DNA of 64,000 bases from an uncultured virus (IMG/VR IMGVR_UViG_3300030104_003374) (taxonomy: Duplodnaviria; Heunggongvirae; Uroviricota; Caudoviricetes): IMG/VR virus record IMGVR_UViG_3300030104_003374; one strand, given 5' to 3'. Below are positions 12,594 through 38,743 of this stretch, in pieces. Under the pieces are notes generated by a model. The model did no database searches. It was not told the DNA's origin and saw nothing but the letters and a program-made list of their open reading frames with translations. The position numbers were made by a program, and so were the translations under genes. Numbering within the stretch: the first letter of the stretch is position 1; each line of letters opens with the position of its first letter.

Positions 12594-13027
12594 AACAAGA
12601 GTTTGATCCAGAATTGTTTAATTTGCTATGCAAAAAGTATAAGGATACTTTAAAAGCTAGAGAGAAACATGATCAAATAAAAAATAGTATAATGAATAAA
12701 CAAATAAAACTAAGAGGTGTATTACTTTGTATTGGAGTTACAGTAGTTCTTACTTTATTGTTTACAATTTTATTAATAAAAAAGGAACCTGTAAAAGTAG
12801 AAAAGAATACTGTATCCTTAAAAGAGTATAAGCTTTTAGAAGAAGAGGTTGAAATAATTAGAAAAGATGCGGGAGATATACAATATGATTTATACCTTAC
12901 AGAAAAAGAAAACAGAAGACTTCTTGAAGAAAATAAAGTACTTGGATCATTACTTGGAGAAATAGAAAATACAGAGTGTGGTTCTAAATTATTAAAGAAG
13001 TTTTGGGACCAACAAGGATATGAGTGA
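12590..13027 (+). CDS. membrane-anchored coiled-coil protein
   Basis: TM GVLLCIGVTVVLTLLFTILLI then heptads; alternative start at MNKQ. Confidence 0.55.
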   Translation: MKQEFDPELFNLLCKKYKDTLKAREKHDQIKNSIMNKQIKLRGVLLCIGVTVVLTLLFTILLIKKEPVKVEKNTVSLKEYKLLEEEVEIIRKDAGDIQYDLYLTEKENRRLLEENKVLGSLLGEIENTECGSKLLKKFWDQQGYE

Positions 13028-18298: not shown

Positions 18299-18310
18299 AT
18301 TTGTATATTA
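18299..18310 (+). promoter_or_regulatory. putative phage late promoter motif (ATTTGTATATTA)
   Basis: 11/12 match, upstream of scaffold-MCP operon. Confidence 0.6.
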
Positions 18311-18338
18311 ATAGTAACAGTAATTTAAAACCAACAAA

Positions 18339-19607
18339 ATGAGTGAAGAAACTAATAATGTGGAAACACAAGATACTACAACGGTAGGTCAGGTAGATGT
18401 AGATATTGATGCAATCTTTGGAGCAAGTCCTGATGCAAGCAATGTAATGCTACCAACAGAAGAAGAAACTGAAAAACCAACAAATGTCTTAGCGACTGAA
18501 AAGCCCTTTGACACAGAGTTCATTGACAAACCTGCAAAGACAGAAACTGAGACAGAAGAAAAGCCTGTTTCAGATGAAGTAATAGCAGAACAGACAGAAG
18601 AAGCAATCGCTGAGTTAGATGATTTAATATCTCAAGAAGAGACTGCTGAAGATAGAGGAAGACCTAAACTTGATAAAAGCGGTCTTATGGATCTAGCATC
18701 TAAAATGATTGAAGAAGGTTCTTTAATGCCTTTTGATGATGAAAAGCCTATGGAGGATTATTCAGCAAAAGATTTTAGAGAATTATTTGAGGCAAACTTT
18801 CAGCAGAGAGAAGAAAAAATTAGACAGGATACACCTAAAGAATTTTTTGAAGCTCTTCCTCAAGAACTTCAGATAGCTGCAAAATATGTAGCAGATGGAG
18901 GAACTGACATGAAAGGATTATTTAGAACTTTATCTCATGTAGAAGAAGTAAGAGAATTAGATCCTTCTAATGAACAACATCAAGCTGAAATTGCAAGGCA
19001 GTATTTAACTGCTACTAACTTTGGTAATCCTGAAGAAATAGAAGAAGAAATAGAAACTTGGAGGGATATTGAAAAGCTAGAAAAGAAAGCTAATCAATTT
19101 AAACCTAAGTTAGATAAAATGCAAGAAGAAATTGTTGCTAGACAACTAGCTAAACAAGAACAAATGAAGAGTCAGCAAGAACATGCAGCGAAAGCTTATA
19201 TGGATGATGTATATAATACATTATCTGTAGGTCAACTTGGAGATGTTAAGTTAGATAAAAAGACACAGGGTCTTTTATATACAGGCTTAGTTCAACCTAG
19301 TTACCCTTCTATGTCAGGTAAACCTACTAATTTATTGGGACACTTATTAGAAAAGTACCAATATGTAGAACCAAGACATGACCTCATTGCTGAAGCACTT
19401 TGGTTACTAGCAGATCCTCAAGGATATAGAACTAAGATTCAAAGTCAAGGTAGTAATGAAGCAAACAAAAAAACTGTAAGGATGTTGAAGACAGAATCTT
19501 CAAGAAAGATTACATCCTCAGTAGCACCAGAAAGAAAGAAACCTTCTAGAAGCACAAAGAAAAAAACAGTTTCTAGAAAACAACAAAATATTTTTAAACG
19601 CTTTTAA
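18339..19607 (+). CDS. capsid scaffold/assembly protein
   Basis: acidic disordered N-terminus, coiled coils, basic C-tail; directly upstream of MCP. Confidence 0.7.
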   Translation: MSEETNNVETQDTTTVGQVDVDIDAIFGASPDASNVMLPTEEETEKPTNVLATEKPFDTEFIDKPAKTETETEEKPVSDEVIAEQTEEAIAELDDLISQEETAEDRGRPKLDKSGLMDLASKMIEEGSLMPFDDEKPMEDYSAKDFRELFEANFQQREEKIRQDTPKEFFEALPQELQIAAKYVADGGTDMKGLFRTLSHVEEVRELDPSNEQHQAEIARQYLTATNFGNPEEIEEEIETWRDIEKLEKKANQFKPKLDKMQEEIVARQLAKQEQMKSQQEHAAKAYMDDVYNTLSVGQLGDVKLDKKTQGLLYTGLVQPSYPSMSGKPTNLLGHLLEKYQYVEPRHDLIAEALWLLADPQGYRTKIQSQGSNEANKKTVRMLKTESSRKITSSVAPERKKPSRSTKKKTVSRKQQNIFKRF

Positions 19608-21245: not shown

Positions 21246-21254
21246 TATATATAT

Positions 21255-21296: not shown

Positions 21297-21315
21297 AATT
21301 TTTAAAACCAACATT

Positions 21316-22323
21316 ATGTCATTTACACAAGTAATCACAAAAACAAATAAGAAAACACAAGTAAGAATTAAACCTTACTTTGATCCAACTGTCTCAAATA
21401 TGGGATTAGAAGATTATGGGATCACAATGTTTGACGGTGTCAAGCATATGGAACAACTAGCATGCATTGAAAAAAACGGTATTGTAAGATATGTTACCGG
21501 ACTTAATGAATTTGCACCTGCAGTTAAACTATTAACTGGTGAAGCCAAAGAAGCTAAGGTGACACAAATTAGAACTACAGTTGCAGAGCTAGAAAAAGAA
21601 TTAGCATCAAATGTTATTGATGTAAAAGATAAAGACTTTTGGAATAAAGTAACTTTACTTAAACCTAACAATTCAGAATTCTGGAATAAGATTGAAATTA
21701 AATGCGGTAATGAGCCCGTATATTTAGATATGAAAGATCCTTATGATAGAATTAAATTTTATGCAATTGAAGCAGGAGGATTTTCTCTAGTTGCAAAAAG
21801 TTATGATGATGCAAGATCACAAGCAGTACCACCTAAGTTTTATTTAGATAAAGAAGAAGATACTGCAATGATAAGAACAGAGTATAAGAAACTAAGAAAC
21901 AAAGCATACTCTGAATTACAAAAATTATTTGATAAGAATAGCAGCAAGTTATTTTATATTGCTAAAGTAGTAGATACTCATAGTACACAGTATAAGAAAG
22001 ATACTCCAAATGATATTATATATGATAATATGGATATCTATATTAGTGGTCAAGGTATTGAAAGTAATAAAGAAAGAGCAGCTAATTCATTCTTAAGCAC
22101 ATGTAAAATGGATATGGAAACATTAAAAATTAAAGCAATTGTTAAAGATTCCGTATTTTTTAAGTATATTGTTAATAAGAGCGATGGTTATATTTATCAC
22201 AATGATACAAATGCAGCTTTAGGTAGAAATGTTACTGATGTTGTTGAGTATCTTAAGAATCCTTTACATGAGGATATTCTTGGTGATTTAAATACTAAAT
22301 GTGAAAAGTTTTGGAATAGTTAA
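21316..22323 (+). CDS. conserved crAss-like protein downstream of MCP (assembly factor)
   Basis: start moved to ATG 21316 (21253 lies within terminator); LGRNVTDVVEYLKNP C-terminal motif; synteny. Confidence 0.6.
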   Translation: MSFTQVITKTNKKTQVRIKPYFDPTVSNMGLEDYGITMFDGVKHMEQLACIEKNGIVRYVTGLNEFAPAVKLLTGEAKEAKVTQIRTTVAELEKELASNVIDVKDKDFWNKVTLLKPNNSEFWNKIEIKCGNEPVYLDMKDPYDRIKFYAIEAGGFSLVAKSYDDARSQAVPPKFYLDKEEDTAMIRTEYKKLRNKAYSELQKLFDKNSSKLFYIAKVVDTHSTQYKKDTPNDIIYDNMDIYISGQGIESNKERAANSFLSTCKMDMETLKIKAIVKDSVFFKYIVNKSDGYIYHNDTNAALGRNVTDVVEYLKNPLHEDILGDLNTKCEKFWNS

Positions 22324-26532: not shown

Positions 26533-26552
26533 ATAAATAAAACCAACAAATT

Positions 26553-26711
26553 ATGGGATCAGCAAAATGTCCAAACTGCGGAGCAGCATTAGGTTGCAGC
26601 TGTCAATTAAGAAATGCATCAGACGGCAAACAAGTATGCAATAAATGTGCAAGCAAATATGAAAAAGAATTAGAAGTAAAAAGAATTAAAAGAAGAGAGG
26701 AAACAACTTAA
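26553..26711 (+). CDS. small Cys-rich zinc-ribbon protein (52 aa, not in ORF track)
   Basis: MGSAKCPNCGAALGCSCQLRNASDGKQVCNKC..; AACCAACAAA leader. Confidence 0.7.
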   Translation: MGSAKCPNCGAALGCSCQLRNASDGKQVCNKCASKYEKELEVKRIKRREETT

Positions 26712-26717
26712 GATAAA

Positions 26718-28565
26718 ATGTCAACAAACTCCATAAGATATTACACATTAACAGATTGTTGTGATCCATCAATTCAATTTAATGTAAGACTAGATAAATC
26801 TAGTTGGAATCCTTTTTGGGGTCCAGATGTTGTATGGTTATACGCAGGTCCTACTACTAATTATGTAGCTACTGATGGATCAATTAAACCACTTGAAAAT
26901 AATAAGTGTTATCATGTTGAAGGAAAACAAGCTGATATTGCAGTAGTTTTAGGATATGATGTTTTACAAGATACTAGTTTTTTCTATACTGGTAAAACAG
27001 TATGTGAAGATAAACAACCTTTAGATGCTGATTATGCAATATGTCCTACTTGTGTAACTCCTTGTTTTAAATTAACAAACTGTGATGGTGATACGTTCCT
27101 TACAATAACTGATCTTTCAGCTTATGTAAATACATTTATAACAATTGATTCTAATGCAGATTGTTGGTTTGTAGAAGAATCACCAAATGAATGTTCAGGA
27201 GTAACTACTACTGTAACTTATGTTTCTGCTTGTAGTGCTTGTACATGTAATTGTTATACAGTTACGGGAACAGGAACAATTAGTTATATTGGTTGTGATA
27301 ACGTACCCTATTCAGGAGTATTAGCTCCGGTTCAGGTCTGTGCTCTAACTAAACCAATTTTTGATTCAGATGGTTCTGGAACTATTACTACAAGTAGTGG
27401 TTGTGTAGATGGTGAATGTCCTGAGATTTGTTATATACTTACAGAATGTACAACAGGTGCTATAATAAACAGTAAGTCTCCTTTATTATTTGCTTATATA
27501 GGTAGTGTAGTTACTATAGAAGGTCAAACTGGATGTTATACTGTAAGCACTAGTGATCCTGATTATGAGTGTGATTGTCCAATTGACGTTATAGTTAGGT
27601 TTGATTATGTTGATTGTACCGCTTGTGAACCTACAATAGCTTATAGATTAACTTCTTGTGATAATGAAGAACAAATAATATATACTACTCAAGATTTATC
27701 AGAGTATAAAAATAAAGTAGTAGAGTTAGAAGATCCTTGTGGATGTTATACAGTTGAAGAAATTAATATTGTACCTCCTAGTGATACCACAGTAGTTGTT
27801 CAAGCAGGTGGTTTTGATACTTGTACAGAGTGTAAAACAACATATTATAAACTTACATCATGTGATGGTCTTGATCCTATAACTTATACAAGTACAGATT
27901 TATCTGCTTATGTAGGAAGAGTAATACAGCTGGTAGGTTGTGAAAAATGTTTTACCGTTTCTGAATTTATAGGAGTCCCTACAAATCCAGTTGGAGTAAC
28001 TTTTTATTCTCAACATACTGATTGTGCAGCATGTTTAAAAGACTTTGCATGTAGATGTTCTACTATATATAATGAAGGTGATAGAGAAGATACTTTTACT
28101 TATATAGATTGTAATGGAATTAACCAAATTACTGCGCCTGTTGCAGCTAAATCTAGAAGTGAAAGATATTGTGTAATTAGATGGACTAGTGGAACATTAC
28201 CTTTATACCATGGTAACTGTACACAAAGAGATACTGATTCACCATGGACATGTCCTGTTCAAACCTATCCTGTTAAGAGTATTAAACCAGGATATAATAC
28301 ACCATCTTGTTCAATAGAAAAATATGAAAAAATATCATGTAACTTTGGAGAACAACTTTATAAATCTGTAGTACAAAAAAGATATGGTGTATCTAATTGT
28401 TGTCCAGAAGAAATTGATAAGTGGACCATTAAAAAAGAATTAATTGAGCTTCAAGCATTAGTGGATCCTAACTATACATGTTCTACATCACCTAGCACTT
28501 GTGGTTGTAATAGTAGTAACTGTACAACATGTAATTGTTCTACCCCTAAGACTTGCAGTTCTTGA
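26718..28565 (+). CDS. Cys-rich repeat structural protein (hub/fibre)
   Basis: about 52 Cys in 615 aa; five modules beginning (Y/F).LT.C, several ending C..C. Confidence 0.65.
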   Translation: MSTNSIRYYTLTDCCDPSIQFNVRLDKSSWNPFWGPDVVWLYAGPTTNYVATDGSIKPLENNKCYHVEGKQADIAVVLGYDVLQDTSFFYTGKTVCEDKQPLDADYAICPTCVTPCFKLTNCDGDTFLTITDLSAYVNTFITIDSNADCWFVEESPNECSGVTTTVTYVSACSACTCNCYTVTGTGTISYIGCDNVPYSGVLAPVQVCALTKPIFDSDGSGTITTSSGCVDGECPEICYILTECTTGAIINSKSPLLFAYIGSVVTIEGQTGCYTVSTSDPDYECDCPIDVIVRFDYVDCTACEPTIAYRLTSCDNEEQIIYTTQDLSEYKNKVVELEDPCGCYTVEEINIVPPSDTTVVVQAGGFDTCTECKTTYYKLTSCDGLDPITYTSTDLSAYVGRVIQLVGCEKCFTVSEFIGVPTNPVGVTFYSQHTDCAACLKDFACRCSTIYNEGDREDTFTYIDCNGINQITAPVAAKSRSERYCVIRWTSGTLPLYHGNCTQRDTDSPWTCPVQTYPVKSIKPGYNTPSCSIEKYEKISCNFGEQLYKSVVQKRYGVSNCCPEEIDKWTIKKELIELQALVDPNYTCSTSPSTCGCNSSNCTTCNCSTPKTCSS

Positions 28566-28596
28566 GAATTATAACTATATTATAAATATAAAGACT

Positions 28597-30447
28597 ATGA
28601 AACCTATTAACGCTGATAACGCTCCTTGCTCACCTCAGTCCTCTAACTGTGTTATTTGGGCTGGACCAGATATATCATGTATAAATTTATGTACAGGGGA
28701 TACTATATCTGATACTGTTAGTAAATTAGCTACTGAGCTTTGCACAATAATGACTACATTAAAAGTAAGCAGTTATGATCTTTCTTGTTTTAGTTTAGCT
28801 ACATGTCCTCCAGCAAAGTTTGAGGAATTAATTCAATTATTGATTAAAAGAATTTGTGCTTTAGAAAATGTAAGCACAACAGATTCTACAACATCATCGG
28901 GTGATTGCCCTACAGGTTGTATTATGAAAATTGAATCTTGTTTAATTACAGGAGAAGAAACTACAATGAATCTTACTGATTATGTAACTCTAATTGCTAG
29001 AAAAGTATGTTCATTAGTAAGTGATATAAGCTTACTTCAAAATCAAATTAATAGTTTAGATATTAGAGTTGATGCCTTAGAAAATGCAGCAGCTCCTACA
29101 TTTACTATGCCTAGTTTTGCAGTTGGATGTGATTTAAGTTTAACTATTACATCTGGTACATCTCATACATTAACTGATATTCTTACAGCATTAGTTAATG
29201 ATTCAACATATGGTTATTGTGCTTTACGTACTCAATTAGGTTTACCATCTGCATTAGCTTTAGCTATAAGTAGAAAATGTATATTACAAGCAACAACTTC
29301 TTTAGCTTCTAGTACAGGTGCTAATATGATTACAGAGTATGTAGATTTTGTTGATGATGCTAGTAGTGATACAATAGCAGAAGCTGTTAATAATATTTGG
29401 ATTTCACTTTGTGATGTTAGGAATTATTTAGCAACATATGAAATAAAAGTAGAAGATACTAATACTATTGATTTAACAGTAACTAAAGATGCTACATATG
29501 GTGATATGGGTGTTACCCTTAGTGCTAAACTAGTAGATACTGGATGGAAAGACTTATTAGGTTTTGGTCATCAGGGTGGTACAGTTGGTGCACCTCAAGC
29601 AAGAAGAATTGGCAATGTAGTTCATTTTAGAGGAGATGTTTTTATTCCTTTATCTGATGGAGCTGGTGGAGTACAACCTATGACAAGTGTTGATAGTTAT
29701 AGAGGCGTATCAAGAGCAACCACTGCTACAGGTGCTGCTAATGGAATAACTTTTTCAAGTAATATAGGATACTTTAATCAAAATGCTTCTGTTATTCCAA
29801 CAAGTATTATGGATGGAGGAACTGCTTTACAACATGTTATTACGTTAGCTGGAGGTAATCTTATAGCAACAAGACAAGTAGCTGTAGATACAGGTACTGT
29901 TCTTATGACAGCTTTTATGGAAGTTTCTATATCAACAGATCTAAAATTATATTATAAGTCTTTAAGTGTATTAGAAAGTAATTCTGCAGATACGGCATCT
30001 TATAGACATGCTTCTTCTGCTAGTAATGTTACAACTAATACTTTAGCTTCAGCAGATGTTCCTAATTATAGTGCTAGTGCTGGAGGTGTTAGACCAGACT
30101 ATGCAAACTCAGGTACACTTGTTGTTGGTCAACTATATACAATTGTAAGTTTTGCAGCAGGTGATGACTTTACAAATATTGGTGCAGCAGCTAATGCAAC
30201 AGGACAAAGCTTTATTGCTACAGGTACAACTCCTACTACATGGACTAATGGATCATCTGTAGCATTAGGACCAGGATTAGGATTTGGTTCACAATCTGAT
30301 GGTTCAGGTGGTTATGCAGATTATCCTTTTGCTATTGATGCTGGTCAACCTGATCAAGTAGGTGGATTTAAATTTAGTTTAGATGGTGTAATGTGTTATA
30401 TAGATCCATGTACTACAGATATTCAACCATCTAAAGTATGTCCTTAA
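28597..30447 (+). CDS. tail fibre-like protein with Cys-rich N-terminus
   Basis: start moved to ATG 28597; coiled coil, DTGWKDL..RRIGNVVHFRG fibre motif, Ala/Thr/Gly beta C-terminus. Confidence 0.65.
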   Translation: MKPINADNAPCSPQSSNCVIWAGPDISCINLCTGDTISDTVSKLATELCTIMTTLKVSSYDLSCFSLATCPPAKFEELIQLLIKRICALENVSTTDSTTSSGDCPTGCIMKIESCLITGEETTMNLTDYVTLIARKVCSLVSDISLLQNQINSLDIRVDALENAAAPTFTMPSFAVGCDLSLTITSGTSHTLTDILTALVNDSTYGYCALRTQLGLPSALALAISRKCILQATTSLASSTGANMITEYVDFVDDASSDTIAEAVNNIWISLCDVRNYLATYEIKVEDTNTIDLTVTKDATYGDMGVTLSAKLVDTGWKDLLGFGHQGGTVGAPQARRIGNVVHFRGDVFIPLSDGAGGVQPMTSVDSYRGVSRATTATGAANGITFSSNIGYFNQNASVIPTSIMDGGTALQHVITLAGGNLIATRQVAVDTGTVLMTAFMEVSISTDLKLYYKSLSVLESNSADTASYRHASSASNVTTNTLASADVPNYSASAGGVRPDYANSGTLVVGQLYTIVSFAAGDDFTNIGAAANATGQSFIATGTTPTTWTNGSSVALGPGLGFGSQSDGSGGYADYPFAIDAGQPDQVGGFKFSLDGVMCYIDPCTTDIQPSKVCP

Positions 30448-30467
30448 ATAAATTAAAAAATTAGAAA

Positions 30468-31013
30468 ATGGCAAATTGTGAAAAATGTGGATGTGATGAT
30501 AAGTTTTTACCATCTCCAGCTCCTTGTCCAGAGCCAGAAGCATGTGTTGAAGATGCACAATGTTCAGAAGTAGTAGATGCAAAATGTACTAGATATACTG
30601 GTGATGAATTAGCATGTGGTACTAATGTAATAGTTCCTCAAAATACTTTTATTGATAGAGCTCTTGCAAACATTATAACATTAATATGTTCTAGTACTAC
30701 TAACAAATATGTTAAAGAATTTGATTCACTTTTAAATGATGTTAATGTTATTACTGGAGTAGAGATAACAAATTGTTTTGGATTGAAAGATGGTTGTTTA
30801 ATTCCAAAAGGAGGAGGACCAATTGTTCAATCAAGAGCAGATTTTACAATTGATGTATATAAATATGATTCTGGCACAACAACTTGGACAAATATAACTC
30901 ATGAAGCTACTACTGCTATTTCTGTAAATGAATCTACGGGAGATGTAACTATTACATTATCAGCAGCTCCTGTATTAGAACCTATTCCTCTTAGAGTTAT
31001 TTTAGTAGGATAA
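30468..31013 (+). CDS. Cys-rich fibre-associated protein, N-module paralogous to 28597 gene
   Basis: CSEVVDAKCTRYTGDELAC versus CSPQSSNCVIWAGPDISC. Confidence 0.6.
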   Translation: MANCEKCGCDDKFLPSPAPCPEPEACVEDAQCSEVVDAKCTRYTGDELACGTNVIVPQNTFIDRALANIITLICSSTTNKYVKEFDSLLNDVNVITGVEITNCFGLKDGCLIPKGGGPIVQSRADFTIDVYKYDSGTTTWTNITHEATTAISVNESTGDVTITLSAAPVLEPIPLRVILVG

Positions 31014-31015
31014 AG

Positions 31016-31088
31016 ACATGTCGCAGTTTTGTTGGTTATTGCGGCTAACAAGGATAAAGCCCTCACACAAGTGGGGGTTTTGTTTTTT
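31016..31088 (+). ncRNA. candidate 3'-UTR small RNA: seed hairpin plus terminator
   Basis: stem GTCGCAGT/ATTGCGGC with loop TTTGTTGGTT complementary to AACCAACAAA leaders. Confidence 0.45.
31056..31088 (+). terminator. intrinsic terminator
   Basis: AAAGCCCTCAC-ACAA-GTGGGGGTTTT then TTTTTT. Confidence 0.8.
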
Positions 31089-31121
31089 ATGTTATCTTTA
31101 TACTTGTTAAACTCATTTAAA

Positions 31122-31133
31122 TTTAGTATATTA
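31122..31133 (+). promoter_or_regulatory. putative late promoter motif (TTTAGTATATTA)
   Basis: 11/12 match after terminator, upstream of ATG 31147. Confidence 0.55.
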
Positions 31134-31146
31134 ATTAATAAGTAGC

Positions 31147-31722
31147 ATGGACAAACAATTTAATGAACCTGATTTGAATGCGCCAAGATACAGAAGAGAA
31201 GCGTATCAAATTATTAATAAAGATTTTTATAAAAGATTTTTTAAAAAGTATCCTCACTATAAAGGAAAAGAAACTAAAGAGATCTATAAAATAATAAAAA
31301 CCTTTAATGAATATGTTTGTCAAACTGTCATTGATAAACGGGATGGTGTTGAATTACCAGAAAGTTTAGGATGGTTATTTATTGCTACTTGTAAAGGTAC
31401 TAAAAAGAAAAATATAAATGTAGCTAAGTCTATTAAGTATGGTATGAAGGTAACAAATAAAAACTGGGAGACTGATGGAAAAGTAGCCAAGATTTTTTAT
31501 AGCAATTTTGCACCTAAGTATAAATACAAACATAGAGAGTATTGGGGATTTAAAGCTTGTAGAAATTTTAAAAGATCTGTGTCTAATACTTATCCCGATA
31601 ATTGGCCTATTTATATGGAACTAGAACCTAATAAAAGAATAAAAGCTAGGTATACTAGCAAAGTAATAAAAGATAAGCAGGCTGCTAAAGCTTTAAAAAA
31701 CTATAACGAGTTTGACATATGA
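31147..31722 (+). CDS. IHF-like protein of crAss-like tail module
   Basis: GVELPESLGWLFI, FKACRNFKR; basic; precedes ring and muzzle genes. Confidence 0.6.
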   Translation: MDKQFNEPDLNAPRYRREAYQIINKDFYKRFFKKYPHYKGKETKEIYKIIKTFNEYVCQTVIDKRDGVELPESLGWLFIATCKGTKKKNINVAKSIKYGMKVTNKNWETDGKVAKIFYSNFAPKYKYKHREYWGFKACRNFKRSVSNTYPDNWPIYMELEPNKRIKARYTSKVIKDKQAAKALKNYNEFDI

Positions 31723-33376: not shown

Positions 33377-36300
33377 ATGGCAAAGAAACGGCTTCCTAAT
33401 ACTTCTAATGTAAAAACTCATAGTTTTGTAAAGGGTCTTAATAAAGATTCTGATTTTACATATGTGCAAGATGGCATGTGGACGCATGCACGGAATGCAA
33501 CTAATAATACTATTGAGGGAAACCAAGGTACTATTTCTAATGCTTCTTCAAATCAATTATGTGCTACAGCAGGTGCTTTTATGCCTACTAATTTTGGAGA
33601 TAGAAAAATAATAGGTGCAATACATTTGTTTGCTGATAAATGGATAATTTATACAGTTGGTCATAATGCTACAGATACTGCAACAATGTCTGAAATAGGA
33701 CTTTTAGAAGATGACTCTTGTACTTATAGAACTATTGTTCAAGATGCATGTTTAAACTTTGATAAAAGATATCTTATAGATGGTGCTTCTAAAGAAATGG
33801 AAGACTGTTCTTGGCAAGTATATTGGTGTGATAATAAAAACCCTGATAGATTTTTAAATGTAGGAGATCCTAAAACTTGGCCTGATAGCACTTATAGTTT
33901 TATTGGTCAAGGAGATATAAACTATTATACTAACGGTAGTATTAAGATTCTTTGGCCCGGTGTAGAATGGAAAGAAGATTTACTTAATCCATCTACTCCA
34001 CCACCTTGCTCAACCTTTCCTGATTTAAATGAATTAGATTGCGAAAAAATAAGAATAACTAGTTTAGTACAAACTCCTTGTGTTGAGGTAACCCCAGGTC
34101 AATCAGGAGGAACTATAAATAATGGTAGTTATTCTGCTGCAATAGCTTATACTATTAAAGGTCAAAAAGTAACTGATTACTTTTCCCCTAGTAATATTCA
34201 GCCTGTATGGCATGAGGATAATGGTAAAAATTCATTAGAAATTAAAATAGAAGCGGATACTGAAAATTTTGATGAGTTTCAAATAGCTTTAATTCAAACA
34301 GTAAATTCAATTTCAACTGCAGTCATATTAGGTTTATATTCTAGTAGTACATCAAGAATTACTCTAGATGGTCTTCAAGGAGATTTTAGAGCTGAAACAT
34401 TTTTTAATCTTAATTTAATATCTGATGTATATGAGAAATCTAAACAGATTGAAAATGTAAATAGTTATTTACTAAGAGTAGCTCCTACTACATATTTTGA
34501 TTTTAACTATCAGCCATTAGCTAATTTAATTAGATCTAAGTGGGTTTCTGTAGAATATCCTGCAGAATACTATATTAATGGAGGACATAAAACAAGTTAC
34601 TTAAGAGATGAAGTTTATGCTTTTTTTATAAGATGGGTTTATAATACAGGTTATAAATCTCCTTCTTTTCATATTCCTGGAAGAGCACCTTCTGATTTTA
34701 AAATACCAACTAGTGGTGATGTAGTTTCTGAAGCTAGTAATGATGTTATTTATAATGATATAAATACATTATACACAGGAGATCATATTTTTGAAACTTA
34801 TAACACAGCTTCATTATCAACATTGCCTGGTGGTGTATCAACAACATTAGATGATGGAGGTAAAATTGTTGCTTCAGGTAATATGGGTTACTGGCAATCA
34901 ACGGAAATATATGATGATAAAAAACCTGAAGTTTGGAATTCATCTTCACACTGTTGGACAAATCAATCTGATCCAGCAAATGATTTATGTGGTGAATATA
35001 TTAGACATCATAAGTTTCCTGATAATACATTAAGTAATGAGACTATGCACTTTAAACCTAATCCTACTTCTTCTACAATTGTAGATGAAGCTAAGATTAG
35101 ATTAATGGGTGTTATATTTGAAAACATACCTTTACCAAAAGATAACTTAGGTAAAGATATACCTGGTATAGTTGGTTATGAAATACTAAGAGGATCAAGA
35201 CAAGGTAATAAATCTATAGTTGCAAAAGGAATGATTAACAACTATAGAACATTTGAGTTTAAAGGAACAAGTAAAAAAGGTAAAACAGGTTTATATGCAA
35301 ATCATCCTTTTAATACTATAAAGCCTTGGGGTAATACAAATGATCCTTCAGATTATAACTATAACTTACAAGATCCTTATATAACTCAGCAGGAAAATGA
35401 TGATGATCCTGTAGAACAAAAAATACCTTCTGATATTATATCTTTTCATTCACCGGATACAATGTTTAGAGTTCCTTATTTATCTACCACTGAGTTAAAA
35501 CTTTATGGTGTAATTAAAGGATTTTCAAATCAAAGTTTTCATGAACCTAATCAGCATCCTAAGTTTAAGTTAGTAGATAACTGGGCTTTAGTTACAATGA
35601 TTACATCAGGTTTAATACAGGCTATTATATCAATGGTACCTAGGAATACTTATAATGCACCTAATGTATTAGGAACAGGTGGTGGACAAGCTAATGCTGT
35701 TCCTGCTAATTCTGCAGCAGCTATAGCTGCAGCTGCTACAACTCAAGCAGGTATTGAAAGCTATAACGCTGCTATGGATACATACTTTGGAACTGGTCAA
35801 CCTGCATTAGATGTTGTCTTAGGACTAGTAGGTGGTTATGGAGCTACTATAGCGGCTGGTTATGAAACAAGTATTTTACTTCCTGCTTTTGCTGCTGGAT
35901 TAACAGCTGGGGCAATACCTCCAACTGCCGGATATTATACAGTAGAGTTTCCGGATTATTATTATTTAGATCCTATTAATAGAGTAGCAAGTGGATTAAG
36001 TCAACTAGCTTTTTATTTTTCAGAGGGATCTTCTTCAACATTAAGACTTATAAAAGCAATATTACCATATAGACAATATGCTTTACAAATGATGTCTCAT
36101 GGTTTATATAGTAATATGACAAGTGTTGATGTAGCAAATCCTCAAAGATTTAAAGTCCCCGATGCTTTTTACATTAAGAATAATATTCAAAACTTACCAA
36201 GATATCAAAATAATTTAGGATCAGATTTTTCATATCAAATAAATAATTTAAAGAGAAATAGAAATGTTACTCTTAGAACAGAAGCTGGACCTGTAGGACA

Positions 36301-38743
36301 TACTATAAGTAGTATAGGGCCAACGCTTTTAGATGAAGATAAGTCACTGGTTACTTTAGGAACACTTGTACAAAATGGGACACCTCCTATTCCTGCTCCA
36401 AATAGTCTGTCTGGAGATATACCTAGATTTGATGATCCTACTAATCCAGAATTTTCTTTACCTATTGCTAGTTATTATGGAGGAATTAAGTTTAGACTTA
36501 AAAACCAATATGGTAAATTAGATTCTATATTACAAACAGTTATCACACCTTGTGAGCAAAAAGATTTTAGATATGCTCCAGAAGGACCTATATGTAATAC
36601 TAATGGCACAGAAGAAGAATTATATATAAATATTATTCCTCATTCTCCTGTACTATTTGGAGGAGATACATATATAAATAGATATACTGAAAAAAATACA
36701 ATGTTATTTTTTAATCAGTGGTTATTTGATTTTCCAGATGGACAACAGTATAACTATATGTTAGATCAAATGATTCCTGAACCCAAGTTTCATTGTAATA
36801 GTCAAAGCTATGATGTGTCTAACTTGATTAATGAAATTAATATATTTGGTTCTGTTCCTGGAAATAACCAAGGTGCTTTACCAGGACAAGGACCTTTACC
36901 TACAGATTTTTATAATTTAGATCACAGAAAATATAAATATAAAACTAATAGTAAAGGAGCTTACCCTGGAATTTTTGGAGTTAAAGAATCATTCTTTTAT
37001 TTAGCAGATTCTGCAATTAGAGACTTTTATGTAGAGAGTGATGTTCTTATAGATTTTAGAGAAAATGCTCCAATAGACATGGCTACTAAACATTACGACC
37101 CTTATAGATTTACAGATTTCTACTCTATGTTTGATATGAATCCAAAAATTATAACGGCAGATAATGTATATAAATATGACTACTCTTTAAGTATTACTAA
37201 AAGTGTAAACCAAAAGGTTTCTGCTGGAGCAATGCAAAATAGAAATTATGATCCTAATGTTGCTAGCTTATGTTATACAACATATCCTAATAGAATACTT
37301 TATTCTTTACCTCAAATAAATACACTATCATATAAAGATTCTTGGAGAATATTTTTATTAGATAACTTAGTAAATTTGAGTGGAGCAATTAGTGGAGTAA
37401 AACAGTTTGGTAGAAGTGGTATATTTATTACATTTAATAATCAAAGTCCTATAATGTATCAAGGAGTAGATACATTAAAAACAGATGCAAGTAGAAAACT
37501 TACTATTGGAGATGGTGGATTATTTTCTCAGCCTCCTCAAAAAATATCTTCTGCAGAAGCTCCTTATGAATATGGCTCATGTCAAGATAATAGATCTATA
37601 AGTTCTTCTCCAGGAGGTTTTTATTATATATCTCAAAATCAAGGTAAAATATTTTCTTATGGTAATGGTATAAATGAAATATCTCAAAATGGAATGAAGT
37701 GGTGGTTTGATACTTTCTTACCATATCAACTATTACAAGATTTTCCTGACTATCCTTACTTAGACAATCCTGTATGTGGCATTGGTTGTCAGACTCTTTT
37801 TGATAATGATAATATATTATTATACTTTTCTAAGAAAGACTATAAGCTTAAGTCAGAATACATAGGACAAGTTATTTATGATTCAGAAAAAGATATATTT
37901 ACTATAAGAGATAGAAAAGCAAGTAGATTTAAACTTGGAGATCCTGAACTTTTTGATGACGCATCATGGACTATAAGTTTTGATCCTAAGTCTAAGTTCT
38001 TTATATCTTTTCATGACTGGCATCCAGATTTAGTTTTACCTGGAAAAAACAATTGGATTACAACAAAGAATAATCAGCTATGGAAACATAATGACAAGTG
38101 TAATGATTATTGTAATTACTATGGTAGAAATTATCCTTTTGAATTAGAAATACCTGTATCAACAGGACAGAACGTAACTACCTTAAAAAGTGTTGAGTAT
38201 ATTTTAGAATCTTATAAAAGAGCAGAGTTTAATTGTTTTGATCAGTTTCATGTATTAGATTTTAATTTTGATGAGGCAGTTATTTATAATTCAGAACAGG
38301 TATCTGGTTATTTAAATTTAAACTTAATGCCTAAGAACAATATTTTACTCTCTTTAGAATATCCAAAATATAATACCTCTAATCCTTCTTATGATATATT
38401 ATTTTCAAAAGAAGAAAATAAATATAGGTTTAATCAATTTTGGGATATTACAAAAGATAGAGGAGAGTTTCCTATAGGAGCTGGCTATCCACCAACAGGT
38501 CCTGTAATTCCAGGAAGCACTGTACTAGATGGTAACTATAATGAAAGACATATATGGTTAACTAAACCAAATGGATACATAAGAGAATTAAATACTACAA
38601 ATTTAGATTATCAAAAATCACAAGAACAGCGTAAAAGATTCAGACATTATGCTAACTTTATAAGTTTAAAAAGAAATATTTCAGGTCCTGTTAACATGGT
38701 TCTTAAAATGATTAATACAAAATCTCAAATATCTCAAAGGTAA
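33377..38743 (+). CDS. tail stabilisation (muzzle) protein, P22 gp10-like
   Basis: 1788 aa; FVKGLNKD..ARNA N-terminus, beta-propeller-like strands, WTISF..FISFHDWHPD; precedes cargo genes. Confidence 0.75.
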   Translation: MAKKRLPNTSNVKTHSFVKGLNKDSDFTYVQDGMWTHARNATNNTIEGNQGTISNASSNQLCATAGAFMPTNFGDRKIIGAIHLFADKWIIYTVGHNATDTATMSEIGLLEDDSCTYRTIVQDACLNFDKRYLIDGASKEMEDCSWQVYWCDNKNPDRFLNVGDPKTWPDSTYSFIGQGDINYYTNGSIKILWPGVEWKEDLLNPSTPPPCSTFPDLNELDCEKIRITSLVQTPCVEVTPGQSGGTINNGSYSAAIAYTIKGQKVTDYFSPSNIQPVWHEDNGKNSLEIKIEADTENFDEFQIALIQTVNSISTAVILGLYSSSTSRITLDGLQGDFRAETFFNLNLISDVYEKSKQIENVNSYLLRVAPTTYFDFNYQPLANLIRSKWVSVEYPAEYYINGGHKTSYLRDEVYAFFIRWVYNTGYKSPSFHIPGRAPSDFKIPTSGDVVSEASNDVIYNDINTLYTGDHIFETYNTASLSTLPGGVSTTLDDGGKIVASGNMGYWQSTEIYDDKKPEVWNSSSHCWTNQSDPANDLCGEYIRHHKFPDNTLSNETMHFKPNPTSSTIVDEAKIRLMGVIFENIPLPKDNLGKDIPGIVGYEILRGSRQGNKSIVAKGMINNYRTFEFKGTSKKGKTGLYANHPFNTIKPWGNTNDPSDYNYNLQDPYITQQENDDDPVEQKIPSDIISFHSPDTMFRVPYLSTTELKLYGVIKGFSNQSFHEPNQHPKFKLVDNWALVTMITSGLIQAIISMVPRNTYNAPNVLGTGGGQANAVPANSAAAIAAAATTQAGIESYNAAMDTYFGTGQPALDVVLGLVGGYGATIAAGYETSILLPAFAAGLTAGAIPPTAGYYTVEFPDYYYLDPINRVASGLSQLAFYFSEGSSSTLRLIKAILPYRQYALQMMSHGLYSNMTSVDVANPQRFKVPDAFYIKNNIQNLPRYQNNLGSDFSYQINNLKRNRNVTLRTEAGPVGHTISSIGPTLLDEDKSLVTLGTLVQNGTPPIPAPNSLSGDIPRFDDPTNPEFSLPIASYYGGIKFRLKNQYGKLDSILQTVITPCEQKDFRYAPEGPICNTNGTEEELYINIIPHSPVLFGGDTYINRYTEKNTMLFFNQWLFDFPDGQQYNYMLDQMIPEPKFHCNSQSYDVSNLINEINIFGSVPGNNQGALPGQGPLPTDFYNLDHRKYKYKTNSKGAYPGIFGVKESFFYLADSAIRDFYVESDVLIDFRENAPIDMATKHYDPYRFTDFYSMFDMNPKIITADNVYKYDYSLSITKSVNQKVSAGAMQNRNYDPNVASLCYTTYPNRILYSLPQINTLSYKDSWRIFLLDNLVNLSGAISGVKQFGRSGIFITFNNQSPIMYQGVDTLKTDASRKLTIGDGGLFSQPPQKISSAEAPYEYGSCQDNRSISSSPGGFYYISQNQGKIFSYGNGINEISQNGMKWWFDTFLPYQLLQDFPDYPYLDNPVCGIGCQTLFDNDNILLYFSKKDYKLKSEYIGQVIYDSEKDIFTIRDRKASRFKLGDPELFDDASWTISFDPKSKFFISFHDWHPDLVLPGKNNWITTKNNQLWKHNDKCNDYCNYYGRNYPFELEIPVSTGQNVTTLKSVEYILESYKRAEFNCFDQFHVLDFNFDEAVIYNSEQVSGYLNLNLMPKNNILLSLEYPKYNTSNPSYDILFSKEENKYRFNQFWDITKDRGEFPIGAGYPPTGPVIPGSTVLDGNYNERHIWLTKPNGYIRELNTTNLDYQKSQEQRKRFRHYANFISLKRNISGPVNMVLKMINTKSQISQR

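Follow-up and report, generated by a model that had tools for sequence, protein, structure and literature searches.

A family-wide hairpin-terminator RNA element of uncultured phages, with an invariant loop complementary to the leaders of three virion-module genes

The hairpin-terminator element and its conservation

We analysed a 64,000-nucleotide stretch of DNA (the window) from an uncultured virus of the Caudoviricetes (IMG/VR record IMGVR_UViG_3300030104_003374). Nearly all genes of the window lie on the + strand, as do all features located below, and its G+C content is ~32%. An operon made up of the gene p52 and three unannotated genes that vary among relatives (26553..31013) is closed by an element composed of a hairpin, an A-rich linker and an intrinsic terminator (31020..31088). 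The element begins 6 nucleotides (nt) past the stop codon of the gene at 30468-31013 and is followed by the gene of a conserved, basic protein of 191 amino acids (aa; 31147..31722). A preliminary description, made from the sequence alone, had proposed that the loop of this hairpin is antisense to the leaders of structural genes and acts as a small RNA (sRNA) against their initiation.

The hairpin (31020..31045) was found by direct reading and by RNA folding. Its arms, GTCGCAGT (31020-27) and ATTGCGGC (31038-45), form 8 pairs, two of them G-U, around the loop UUUGUUGGUU (31028-37; TTTGTTGGTT when the letters are read directly). The A-rich linker CUAACAAGGAUAAAG (31046..31059) could, judging from the fold, pair with the U-tract and so lengthen the terminator stem; its conservation is restricted to the window's own clade. 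The intrinsic terminator (31060..31088) has the stem CCCUCAC/GUGGGGG (31060-66/31070-76) and the loop ACAA, followed by UUUUGUUUUUU. It was the top-ranked terminator-like site in a terminator scan, with a T-run that ends at 31088. The stretch folds with -30.6 kcal/mol (z -5.3), and none of 200 shuffles folded equally well. Reading and folding bore out the hairpin as first described, in its coordinates, its 8 base pairs (bp) with two G-U, its loop and its terminator. The loop is unpaired in the minimum-energy fold, both in the window and in 55 of 56 relatives. A pseudoknot or switch formed by loop and linker (CUAACAA/ACAACAA) was considered and rejected: it is confined to the window's clade, and other clades have TGACAGG, AAACGGG or CCCAAG.

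A search of the whole window against Rfam gave no match at the gathering threshold. Below the threshold the best match was MicC, with 24.4 bits against a gathering score of 90. The sub-threshold matches, which we take as chance, overlie the hairpin and the terminator, and several belong to sRNA and leader families.

We used the 191-aa gene just downstream of the element as a neutral anchor for relatives. A word search found 664 homologues of its protein (471 representatives at 50% clustering), and the loci that were fetched are part of ~640 related contigs (311 + 332 candidates); tiers 2 and 3 were gathered with three-sequence alignments of the anchor protein. In tier 1 (anchor 52-70% identical), the hairpin, the terminator and a promoter-like block lay directly upstream of the anchor in 79 of 80 loci, the 80th being cut by a contig end, and the gene preceding the element differed between clades. 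In tier 2 (anchor 41-52% identical), a covariance model detected the element in 53 of 79 loci, where it either adjoins the anchor gene or sits ~1.4-1.7 kb upstream because a gene of 395-438 aa has been inserted. Two tier-2 misses (G008 and G009), read as whole records, carried the hairpin just beyond the 1.5-kb flank. The element was present in all ten tier-3 loci (anchor ~31-36% identical to a distant representative), ~1.45 kb upstream. It was also found in 21/21 related phage records read whole or in part, and each of the 16 fully scanned records gave one strong covariance-model match. Its position was constant: at an operon end, ahead of the region of the 191-aa gene.

The stem is supported by covariation. 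Among 103 distinct model-aligned rows, 95.7% of cells pair, versus 45-60% when the partners are slid, although this alignment was fitted to the covariance model, which flatters pairing figures. All 18 pairs (7 in the hairpin, 11 in the terminator) change on both sides, and 0 of 500 shuffles matched the observed value. The covariation expected of the stem was thus found at all seven hairpin pairs across relatives; the same holds for all 8 pairs in the core helix of the terminator. Folded singly, 55 of 56 distinct relative sequences give the same fold, and MAFFT with RNAalifold, independent of the model-fitted alignment, agrees on the structure. Between clades, stems are swapped entire: GTCGCAG/CTGTGGC, GTCACG/CGTGAC, GGAGG/CCTCC, GTTCTGTGT/ATACAGAAC and CACTGG/CCAGTG.

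The loop reads T(1-4)GTTGGT(1-4) in 92 of 94 distinct + strand rows. The other two rows read TTTAGTTGGTTTT, one further variant, AAAGTTGGTTT, was spotted by eye, and 94/94 rows share a GTTGG core set between T runs. The strictly invariant part of the loop is GUUGGUUU, which is kept even where the neighbouring protein is only ~30% identical. We are almost certain that the element is a real, hitherto undescribed structured RNA element that occurs family-wide. The preliminary description had also joined it in one family with elements at 87, 3243 and 9214, and this grouping failed: the three are plain terminators followed by promoter-like TTT(T/A)GTATATT boxes, their leader complements (8-10 nt, AT-rich) are at chance level, and the covariance model skips them and finds one element per genome.

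The leader box

We searched the window for complements of the loop. The 11/11 complement AACCAACAAAA has its sole exact + strand copy at 18329-39, where its final A opens the ATG at 18339. It is part of a leader box, AAAACCAACAAAA (18327..18339), that runs into the start codon of a scaffold-like gene of 422 aa (p422, 18339-19607). The box AAAACCAACAAA (26539..26550), with 10/10 complementarity at 26541-50, lies 2 nt ahead of the ATG at 26553 of p52, a zinc-ribbon-like gene of 52 aa. The box AAAACCAACA (21304..21313; 8/8 at 21306-13) lies 2 nt ahead of the ATG at 21316 of a 335-aa gene (p335). The relatives and the leader box place the true start of p335, which follows the capsid gene, at 21316 and not at 21253; the longer open reading frame (ORF) from 21253 crosses a terminator hairpin at 21261-81. 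Exact matching therefore agreed with all three complements first reported. The extension of the first one across the AUG, also proposed, comes to one G-U, a bulge and one G-C only, and the stem would have to open; we do not count it. An 8-nt match, ACCAACAA (13008..13015), lies 4 nt ahead of the terminase (TerL) ATG at 13020; it is specific to the clade and probably stands outside the conserved set.

Allowing at most one mismatch, the window holds 8 matches to the loop versus 3.05 expected, and 1 of 100 shuffles reached 8. Complements of at least 8 nt occur in 4 of 51 leaders, versus a mean of 1.2 for 300 shuffled loops. Judged within the window, the match between loop and leaders is weakly above chance. 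The window by itself is weak evidence, and the significance of the match comes from the relatives.

An unbiased count of 8-mers was made in the interval -25..+3 of 349 + strand genes from six genomes. With pure A/T words set aside, enrichment was highest for AACCAACA, with 17 of its 39 genome-wide copies in this interval (37-fold), CCAACAAA (13/27 copies) and ACCAACAA (15/40). The shared box, AAACCAAC, which tops the non-A/T words ahead of start codons, is the complement of the loop core GUUGGUUU, so that the invariant half of one faces the invariant half of the other. In five genomes the pattern AAACCAACA matched 31 times, versus 2 for the reversed pattern. The box is biased in strand, with 23 sense versus 3 antisense copies when the hairpin itself is excluded.

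We then scored orthologues for 23 gene families of the window that have at least 6 orthologues in 15 relatives, asking for a loop complement of at least 7 nt in the leader (-30..+3). The box was present in 14/14 leaders of the scaffold-like p422, 13/14 of p335 and 12/13 of p52. The other 20 families pooled gave 11 of 269 leaders, none of them exceeding 29%, and the terminase had the complement in 0/14. With five more partial records added, AACCAA occurs in 53 of 60 leaders of the three families, preceded by AA in 53/53 and followed by C in 39/53; 2 of the 7 leaders lacking it are start-codon miscalls. The co-conservation of loop and leaders expected from the preliminary description was thus found, at the same three virion-module genes. 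Covariation between them was not, loop and box both being frozen.

The boxes lie ~0-20 nt ahead of the ATG. The scaffold box lies at a variable distance 3' of a promoter-like site, the p335 box after a terminator and the p52 box after a stop codon: the box tracks start codons, not promoters. The leader sequence around it has otherwise diverged, and the box is therefore under selection. The p52 box is the most constant of the three and persists in the most distant relatives (G022 and G023), where p52 retains AAAACCAA immediately 5' of the AUG. Because it is kept where the scaffold and p335 boxes are lost, p52 would be the constant partner of the loop.

Shine-Dalgarno (SD)-like motifs are present in 0-5% of leaders. 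According to the accessible part of one study, ribosomes of hosts such as Bacteroidia do not use SD pairing (PMC6847099), and the scarcity of such motifs fits hosts whose ribosomes ignore the SD.

Tandem A/C-repeat boxes are frequent (AACCAACCAAC, AAACCAAACCAAAC), and the box is duplicated in tandem in leaders of five relatives (G005, G010, G012, G013 and G017; for example AACCAACAAAAACCAAC and AAACCAAACCAAACCAAC). Tandem boxes could offer two pairing registers or, alternatively, form a repeat-based enhancer. A second leader word, TAACCC(T)TTAA / AACCCTAAA, is found ahead of the orthologues of the capsid gene and of a second virion gene, p532, in G007-G010 and G016 and has no counterpart in the window's clade.

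Genome context and neighbouring genes

Matches to terminase, portal and major-capsid families of PHROG follow one another in that order between 13020 and 21245. Three genes past the element, a protein of 1788 aa (33377-38743) matches the crAss muzzle family PF25731 (crAss_MUZ) with 103 bits against a cut-off of 27. The order of the head module and the muzzle identify the phage as broadly crAss-like. The nearest cultured capsids, from Leptolyngbya phage Lbo-JY46 and Cellulophaga phages phi17:2 and phi4:1, are only 26-28% identical, and we therefore do not place it within the Crassvirales. The GenBank phage collection contained neither a DNA match to the window nor a match to the 191-aa protein, and it includes no cultured member of the group.

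Searches of Pfam, PHROG and PDB sequences gave no annotation for the genes of the operon that the hairpin closes. From their position and variability we presume that they are fibre or receptor-binding genes. An invertible fibre segment of the Gin/Cin type was considered and rejected, as the long ORFs at 26553-31013 are all on the + strand and the repeats span no more than 8-11 bp. The first gene of the operon, p52 (26553-26711), encodes four cysteines, and its zinc-ribbon matches are sub-threshold (TFIIB-type, 20 bits, cut-off 29). The model of p335 (21316-22323) has a predicted local distance difference test (pLDDT) score of 82. Foldseek returned nothing for it at E <= 0.001; only its last ~65 residues align with the RecA C-terminal domain in VIA-align (Z 9.8, 63 residues aligned, root-mean-square deviation 1.9). 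A PDB sequence search with p615, p335 and p422 gave no matches.

Here the 191-aa gene follows the element directly; in other clades one gene lies between them. Its protein has no Pfam family and a mean AlphaFold pLDDT of 40; in Atlas it matches unnamed viral clusters only, plus a weak lead (0.86) to PF00216. The inserted gene of 395-438 aa has a conserved C-terminal motif (loci L120-L199; records G007-G011).

Ahead of the 191-aa gene lies a promoter-like block, (C/T)TTG-N-TTTAGTATATTA (31103..31133), which is invariant in the alignment of relatives. Boxes of the type TTT(T/A)GTATATT occur on the + strand at 181, 1853, 3331, 7133, 31122 and 41169, often just past a terminator, and are probably the middle/late promoter type of these phages. 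Another promoter-like site, GTATATTA, lies at about 18306-18313. For the crAss-like phage phi14:2, the accessible part of one study reports that middle and late genes use the host RNA polymerase and a tripartite promoter (10.1101/2020.03.07.982082). That same part describes highly transcribed intergenic regions and contains nothing on such a hairpin (10.1101/2020.03.07.982082).

Relatives were found in five bins of metagenome-assembled genomes (MAGs; loci L277-L281) labelled Rickettsiales, Clostridium, Gammaproteobacteria, Pseudomonadales and Flavobacteriales. These assignments are most likely binning artefacts and, the labels being discordant, we make no host call. IMG/VR calls one 95-kb relative (G018, locus L130) a provirus.

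What the loop may pair with

The reading we favour is that the loop pairs antisense with the AAACCAAC boxes of the scaffold-like gene, p335 and p52, with repression as the most likely effect; from the sequence comparisons above we give it a probability of about one half. The element would be an RNA module at the 3' end of the late operon in which the variable fibre genes lie. Its short hairpin would keep the invariant loop UUUGUUGGUUU single-stranded, with the intrinsic terminator directly after it. The loop, chiefly GUUGGUUU, would pair with the AAACCAAC box ahead of the AUG of p52, p335 and p422. As these genomes do not use the SD, the duplex would cover the 30S landing site, lowering translation while late transcripts build up. 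The RNA might work in trans, as a 3' fragment released by termination or processing, or in cis, within the same polycistronic mRNA; action in cis is conceivable because one operon is framed by the p52 box on one side and the hairpin on the other. We infer three things here: accumulation of the RNA, pairing of the loop with the box and a repressive effect. Of the anti-initiation sRNA originally proposed, the conserved structured element, the exposed invariant loop and the conserved leader tag stand, and the wider RNA family does not.

Several observations weigh against this proposal. All 20 listed sequencing runs that hold the stretch are DNA. In the window alone, 17% of shuffled U-rich loops match at least 3 of the 51 A-rich leaders. 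Loop and box show no compensatory change, and covariation between them cannot be scored because both partners are frozen, although a seed with several targets is expected to freeze. The three loop variants have altered 5' U's or an inserted A; the genomes that carry them show no matched change of the box but keep AACCAAC boxes, with which a core pairing of 7-9 nt persists. G022 and G023 keep the loop unchanged although their scaffold leader lacks a box and p335 has only CAACAA, so the loop must be constrained by more than those two sites. The three sites thus explain the invariance of the loop only in part, and recognition by a conserved protein or by a partner in the host would account for it just as well. 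The tandem A/C boxes could by themselves be an unstructured translation enhancer. Finally, a full 11-bp helix would be strained in an 11-nt loop, and only ~7-9 bp are realistic.

The chief rival to antisense pairing, which we consider unlikely but take seriously, is that the hairpin is bound by a protein or by host machinery, for instance an RNA-binding protein of the phage, RNA polymerase, NusA or the ribosome. The hairpin would then control termination, read-through into the operon of the 191-aa protein and the muzzle, or the stability of the mRNA 3' end, and the leader complementarity would be incidental or reflect a separate, A/C-rich enhancer function. Hairpins bound by proteins typically combine a variable stem with a fixed loop, and a loop that stays fixed despite ~30% protein identity and the loss of two of three boxes is what a conserved partner would lead one to expect. 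Moreover, the element always touches a terminator, and the conserved basic 191-aa protein is encoded next to it or one gene off. However, this protein has no family and no candidate binder emerged, from work that included no search aimed at arginine-rich antiterminators; upstream of the stem there is the variable end of the preceding gene and no conserved linear element resembling boxA. Binding of a protein also leaves unexplained why the top word at start sites is the exact complement of the loop, at the same three families. More doubtful, in our view, is that the box is a phage-specific initiation signal for which the hairpin RNA serves as adaptor or competitor: the loop would mimic a segment of host ribosomal RNA (rRNA) with which the box pairs, or the hairpin RNA would bridge box-bearing mRNAs to the ribosome, in which case it would activate rather than repress. 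The leaders have no SD, the box occupies the SD position and is often repeated, and the freezing of both loop and box would be natural with a third invariant partner. Yet the one 16S rRNA examined, of Flavobacteriales and taken from a MAG that holds a related phage contig and is unproven as its host, has no loop-like segment at up to one mismatch, its best being UUUAUUGGGUU with 2/11 mismatches; the best leader duplex with it, at -8.6 kcal/mol, falls on an unremarkable site. Slightly less likely still is a two-part translation code for a host that ignores the SD: a AAACCAAC tag would mark chosen virion genes, and a single frozen anti-tag RNA would close the late operon. The anti-tag would be a portable 'anti-SD' that gates or bridges the tagged mRNAs at the ribosome and thereby adjusts the proportions of the head-assembly proteins. 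If true, such a code would make a phage-encoded RNA part of start-site selection, beyond a repressor.

Quite improbable is an element that acts as DNA, with loop and boxes as one 8-11-bp site in opposite orientations, or with the hairpin formed by single-stranded DNA in replication. The site could be bound by a DNA-binding protein or be a boundary or recombination sequence around an exchangeable fibre cassette, and the p52 box and the loop, seen on double-stranded DNA, are indeed inverted copies that bracket variable genes. But every gene between these two is co-oriented, the boxes occur 23 times in sense versus 3 in antisense and follow start codons rather than promoters, and stem covariation around a fixed loop points to a folded single strand. 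There is also no switch of GC skew near 31 kb, and the hairpin lies mid-genome in records with terminal repeats. That it is an ordinary extra hairpin of a 3' untranslated region (UTR), resembling the leaders by chance, seems scarcely credible: the single-window statistics are weak, and the composition of a U-rich loop and A-rich leaders favours such matches, but an invariant loop, a stem that covaries in every relative examined and a box kept at orthologues contradict it.

Bacterial sRNAs that derive from 3'UTRs and act by base pairing include those of the CpxQ, SroC, DapZ and MicL type. Like them, the element combines a seed module with a Rho-independent terminator that ends a protein-coding operon, has no conserved promoter of its own and has its predicted targets at translation starts, and its seed is much more conserved than its surroundings. 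Unlike them, it is encoded by a phage of lytic type, and its predicted targets are that phage's own virion-module genes. Its seed is in a hairpin loop and not at a free 5' end, its hosts are probably without Hfq and SD-led initiation, and it is known here from sequence alone. The accessible part of a study of CisR describes a 3'UTR-derived sRNA that acts on CTX-phi mRNA (PMC13250501). As a phage RNA that would come from the transcription unit of its targets, with an exposed loop facing short sites at or near ribosome-binding regions upstream or downstream in that unit, the element also resembles the c4 antisense RNA of P1/P7 and the CI RNA of P4. These control immunity and lysogeny genes, sit in leaders and use two loops, whereas here one loop, at an operon end, faces three dispersed late-gene leaders; we found no sequence or Rfam relation between them and the element.

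With the RNA hairpins of lambda nut boxB and HK022 put it shares a critical loop and a place on the phage transcript just ahead of a terminator. The loops of boxB differ between phages, whereas the loop of the element is frozen; it also has no boxA-like partner and lies at the operon end rather than close to a promoter. A nut site of the lambda type was accordingly rejected: no boxA is conserved, and 5' of the stem there are the variable gene end and a few A-rich bases. Phage-encoded sRNAs that act in trans, which it resembles in being a small RNA of a phage for which regulation through base pairing is proposed, are reported, in the accessible parts of two studies, from enterobacterial phages and prophages and mostly with host-gene targets (10.1101/2024.10.31.621285, PMC12197685). 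Our literature searches, which reached part of the texts, found no sRNA in phages of crAss-like type or of Bacteroidota, and no case in which head or virion genes form a conserved regulon. The literature on promoters, hairpins and small RNAs of crAss-like phages and Crassvirales gave no description of the element.

Even without pairing, the element defines a clear new family of structured RNA, single in copy per genome and fixed in position, that could be used as a marker of the phage group and as a lead to its binding partner. Its carriers form a large group of uncultured marine phages of crAss-like type, and the hairpin is probably an antisense regulator made by the phage. If the pairing is true, it would be, as far as literature searches show, the first regulatory RNA for phages of the crAss-like or Bacteroidota type, and a rare case of a lytic phage that tunes translation of its own virion genes through an sRNA-like module, with a seed and three target sites that stay frozen across hundreds of uncultured marine genomes. 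Little is known about how single genes get different outputs when initiation does not use the SD, and the pairing would provide a handle on post-transcriptional control in hosts that initiate without SD pairing.

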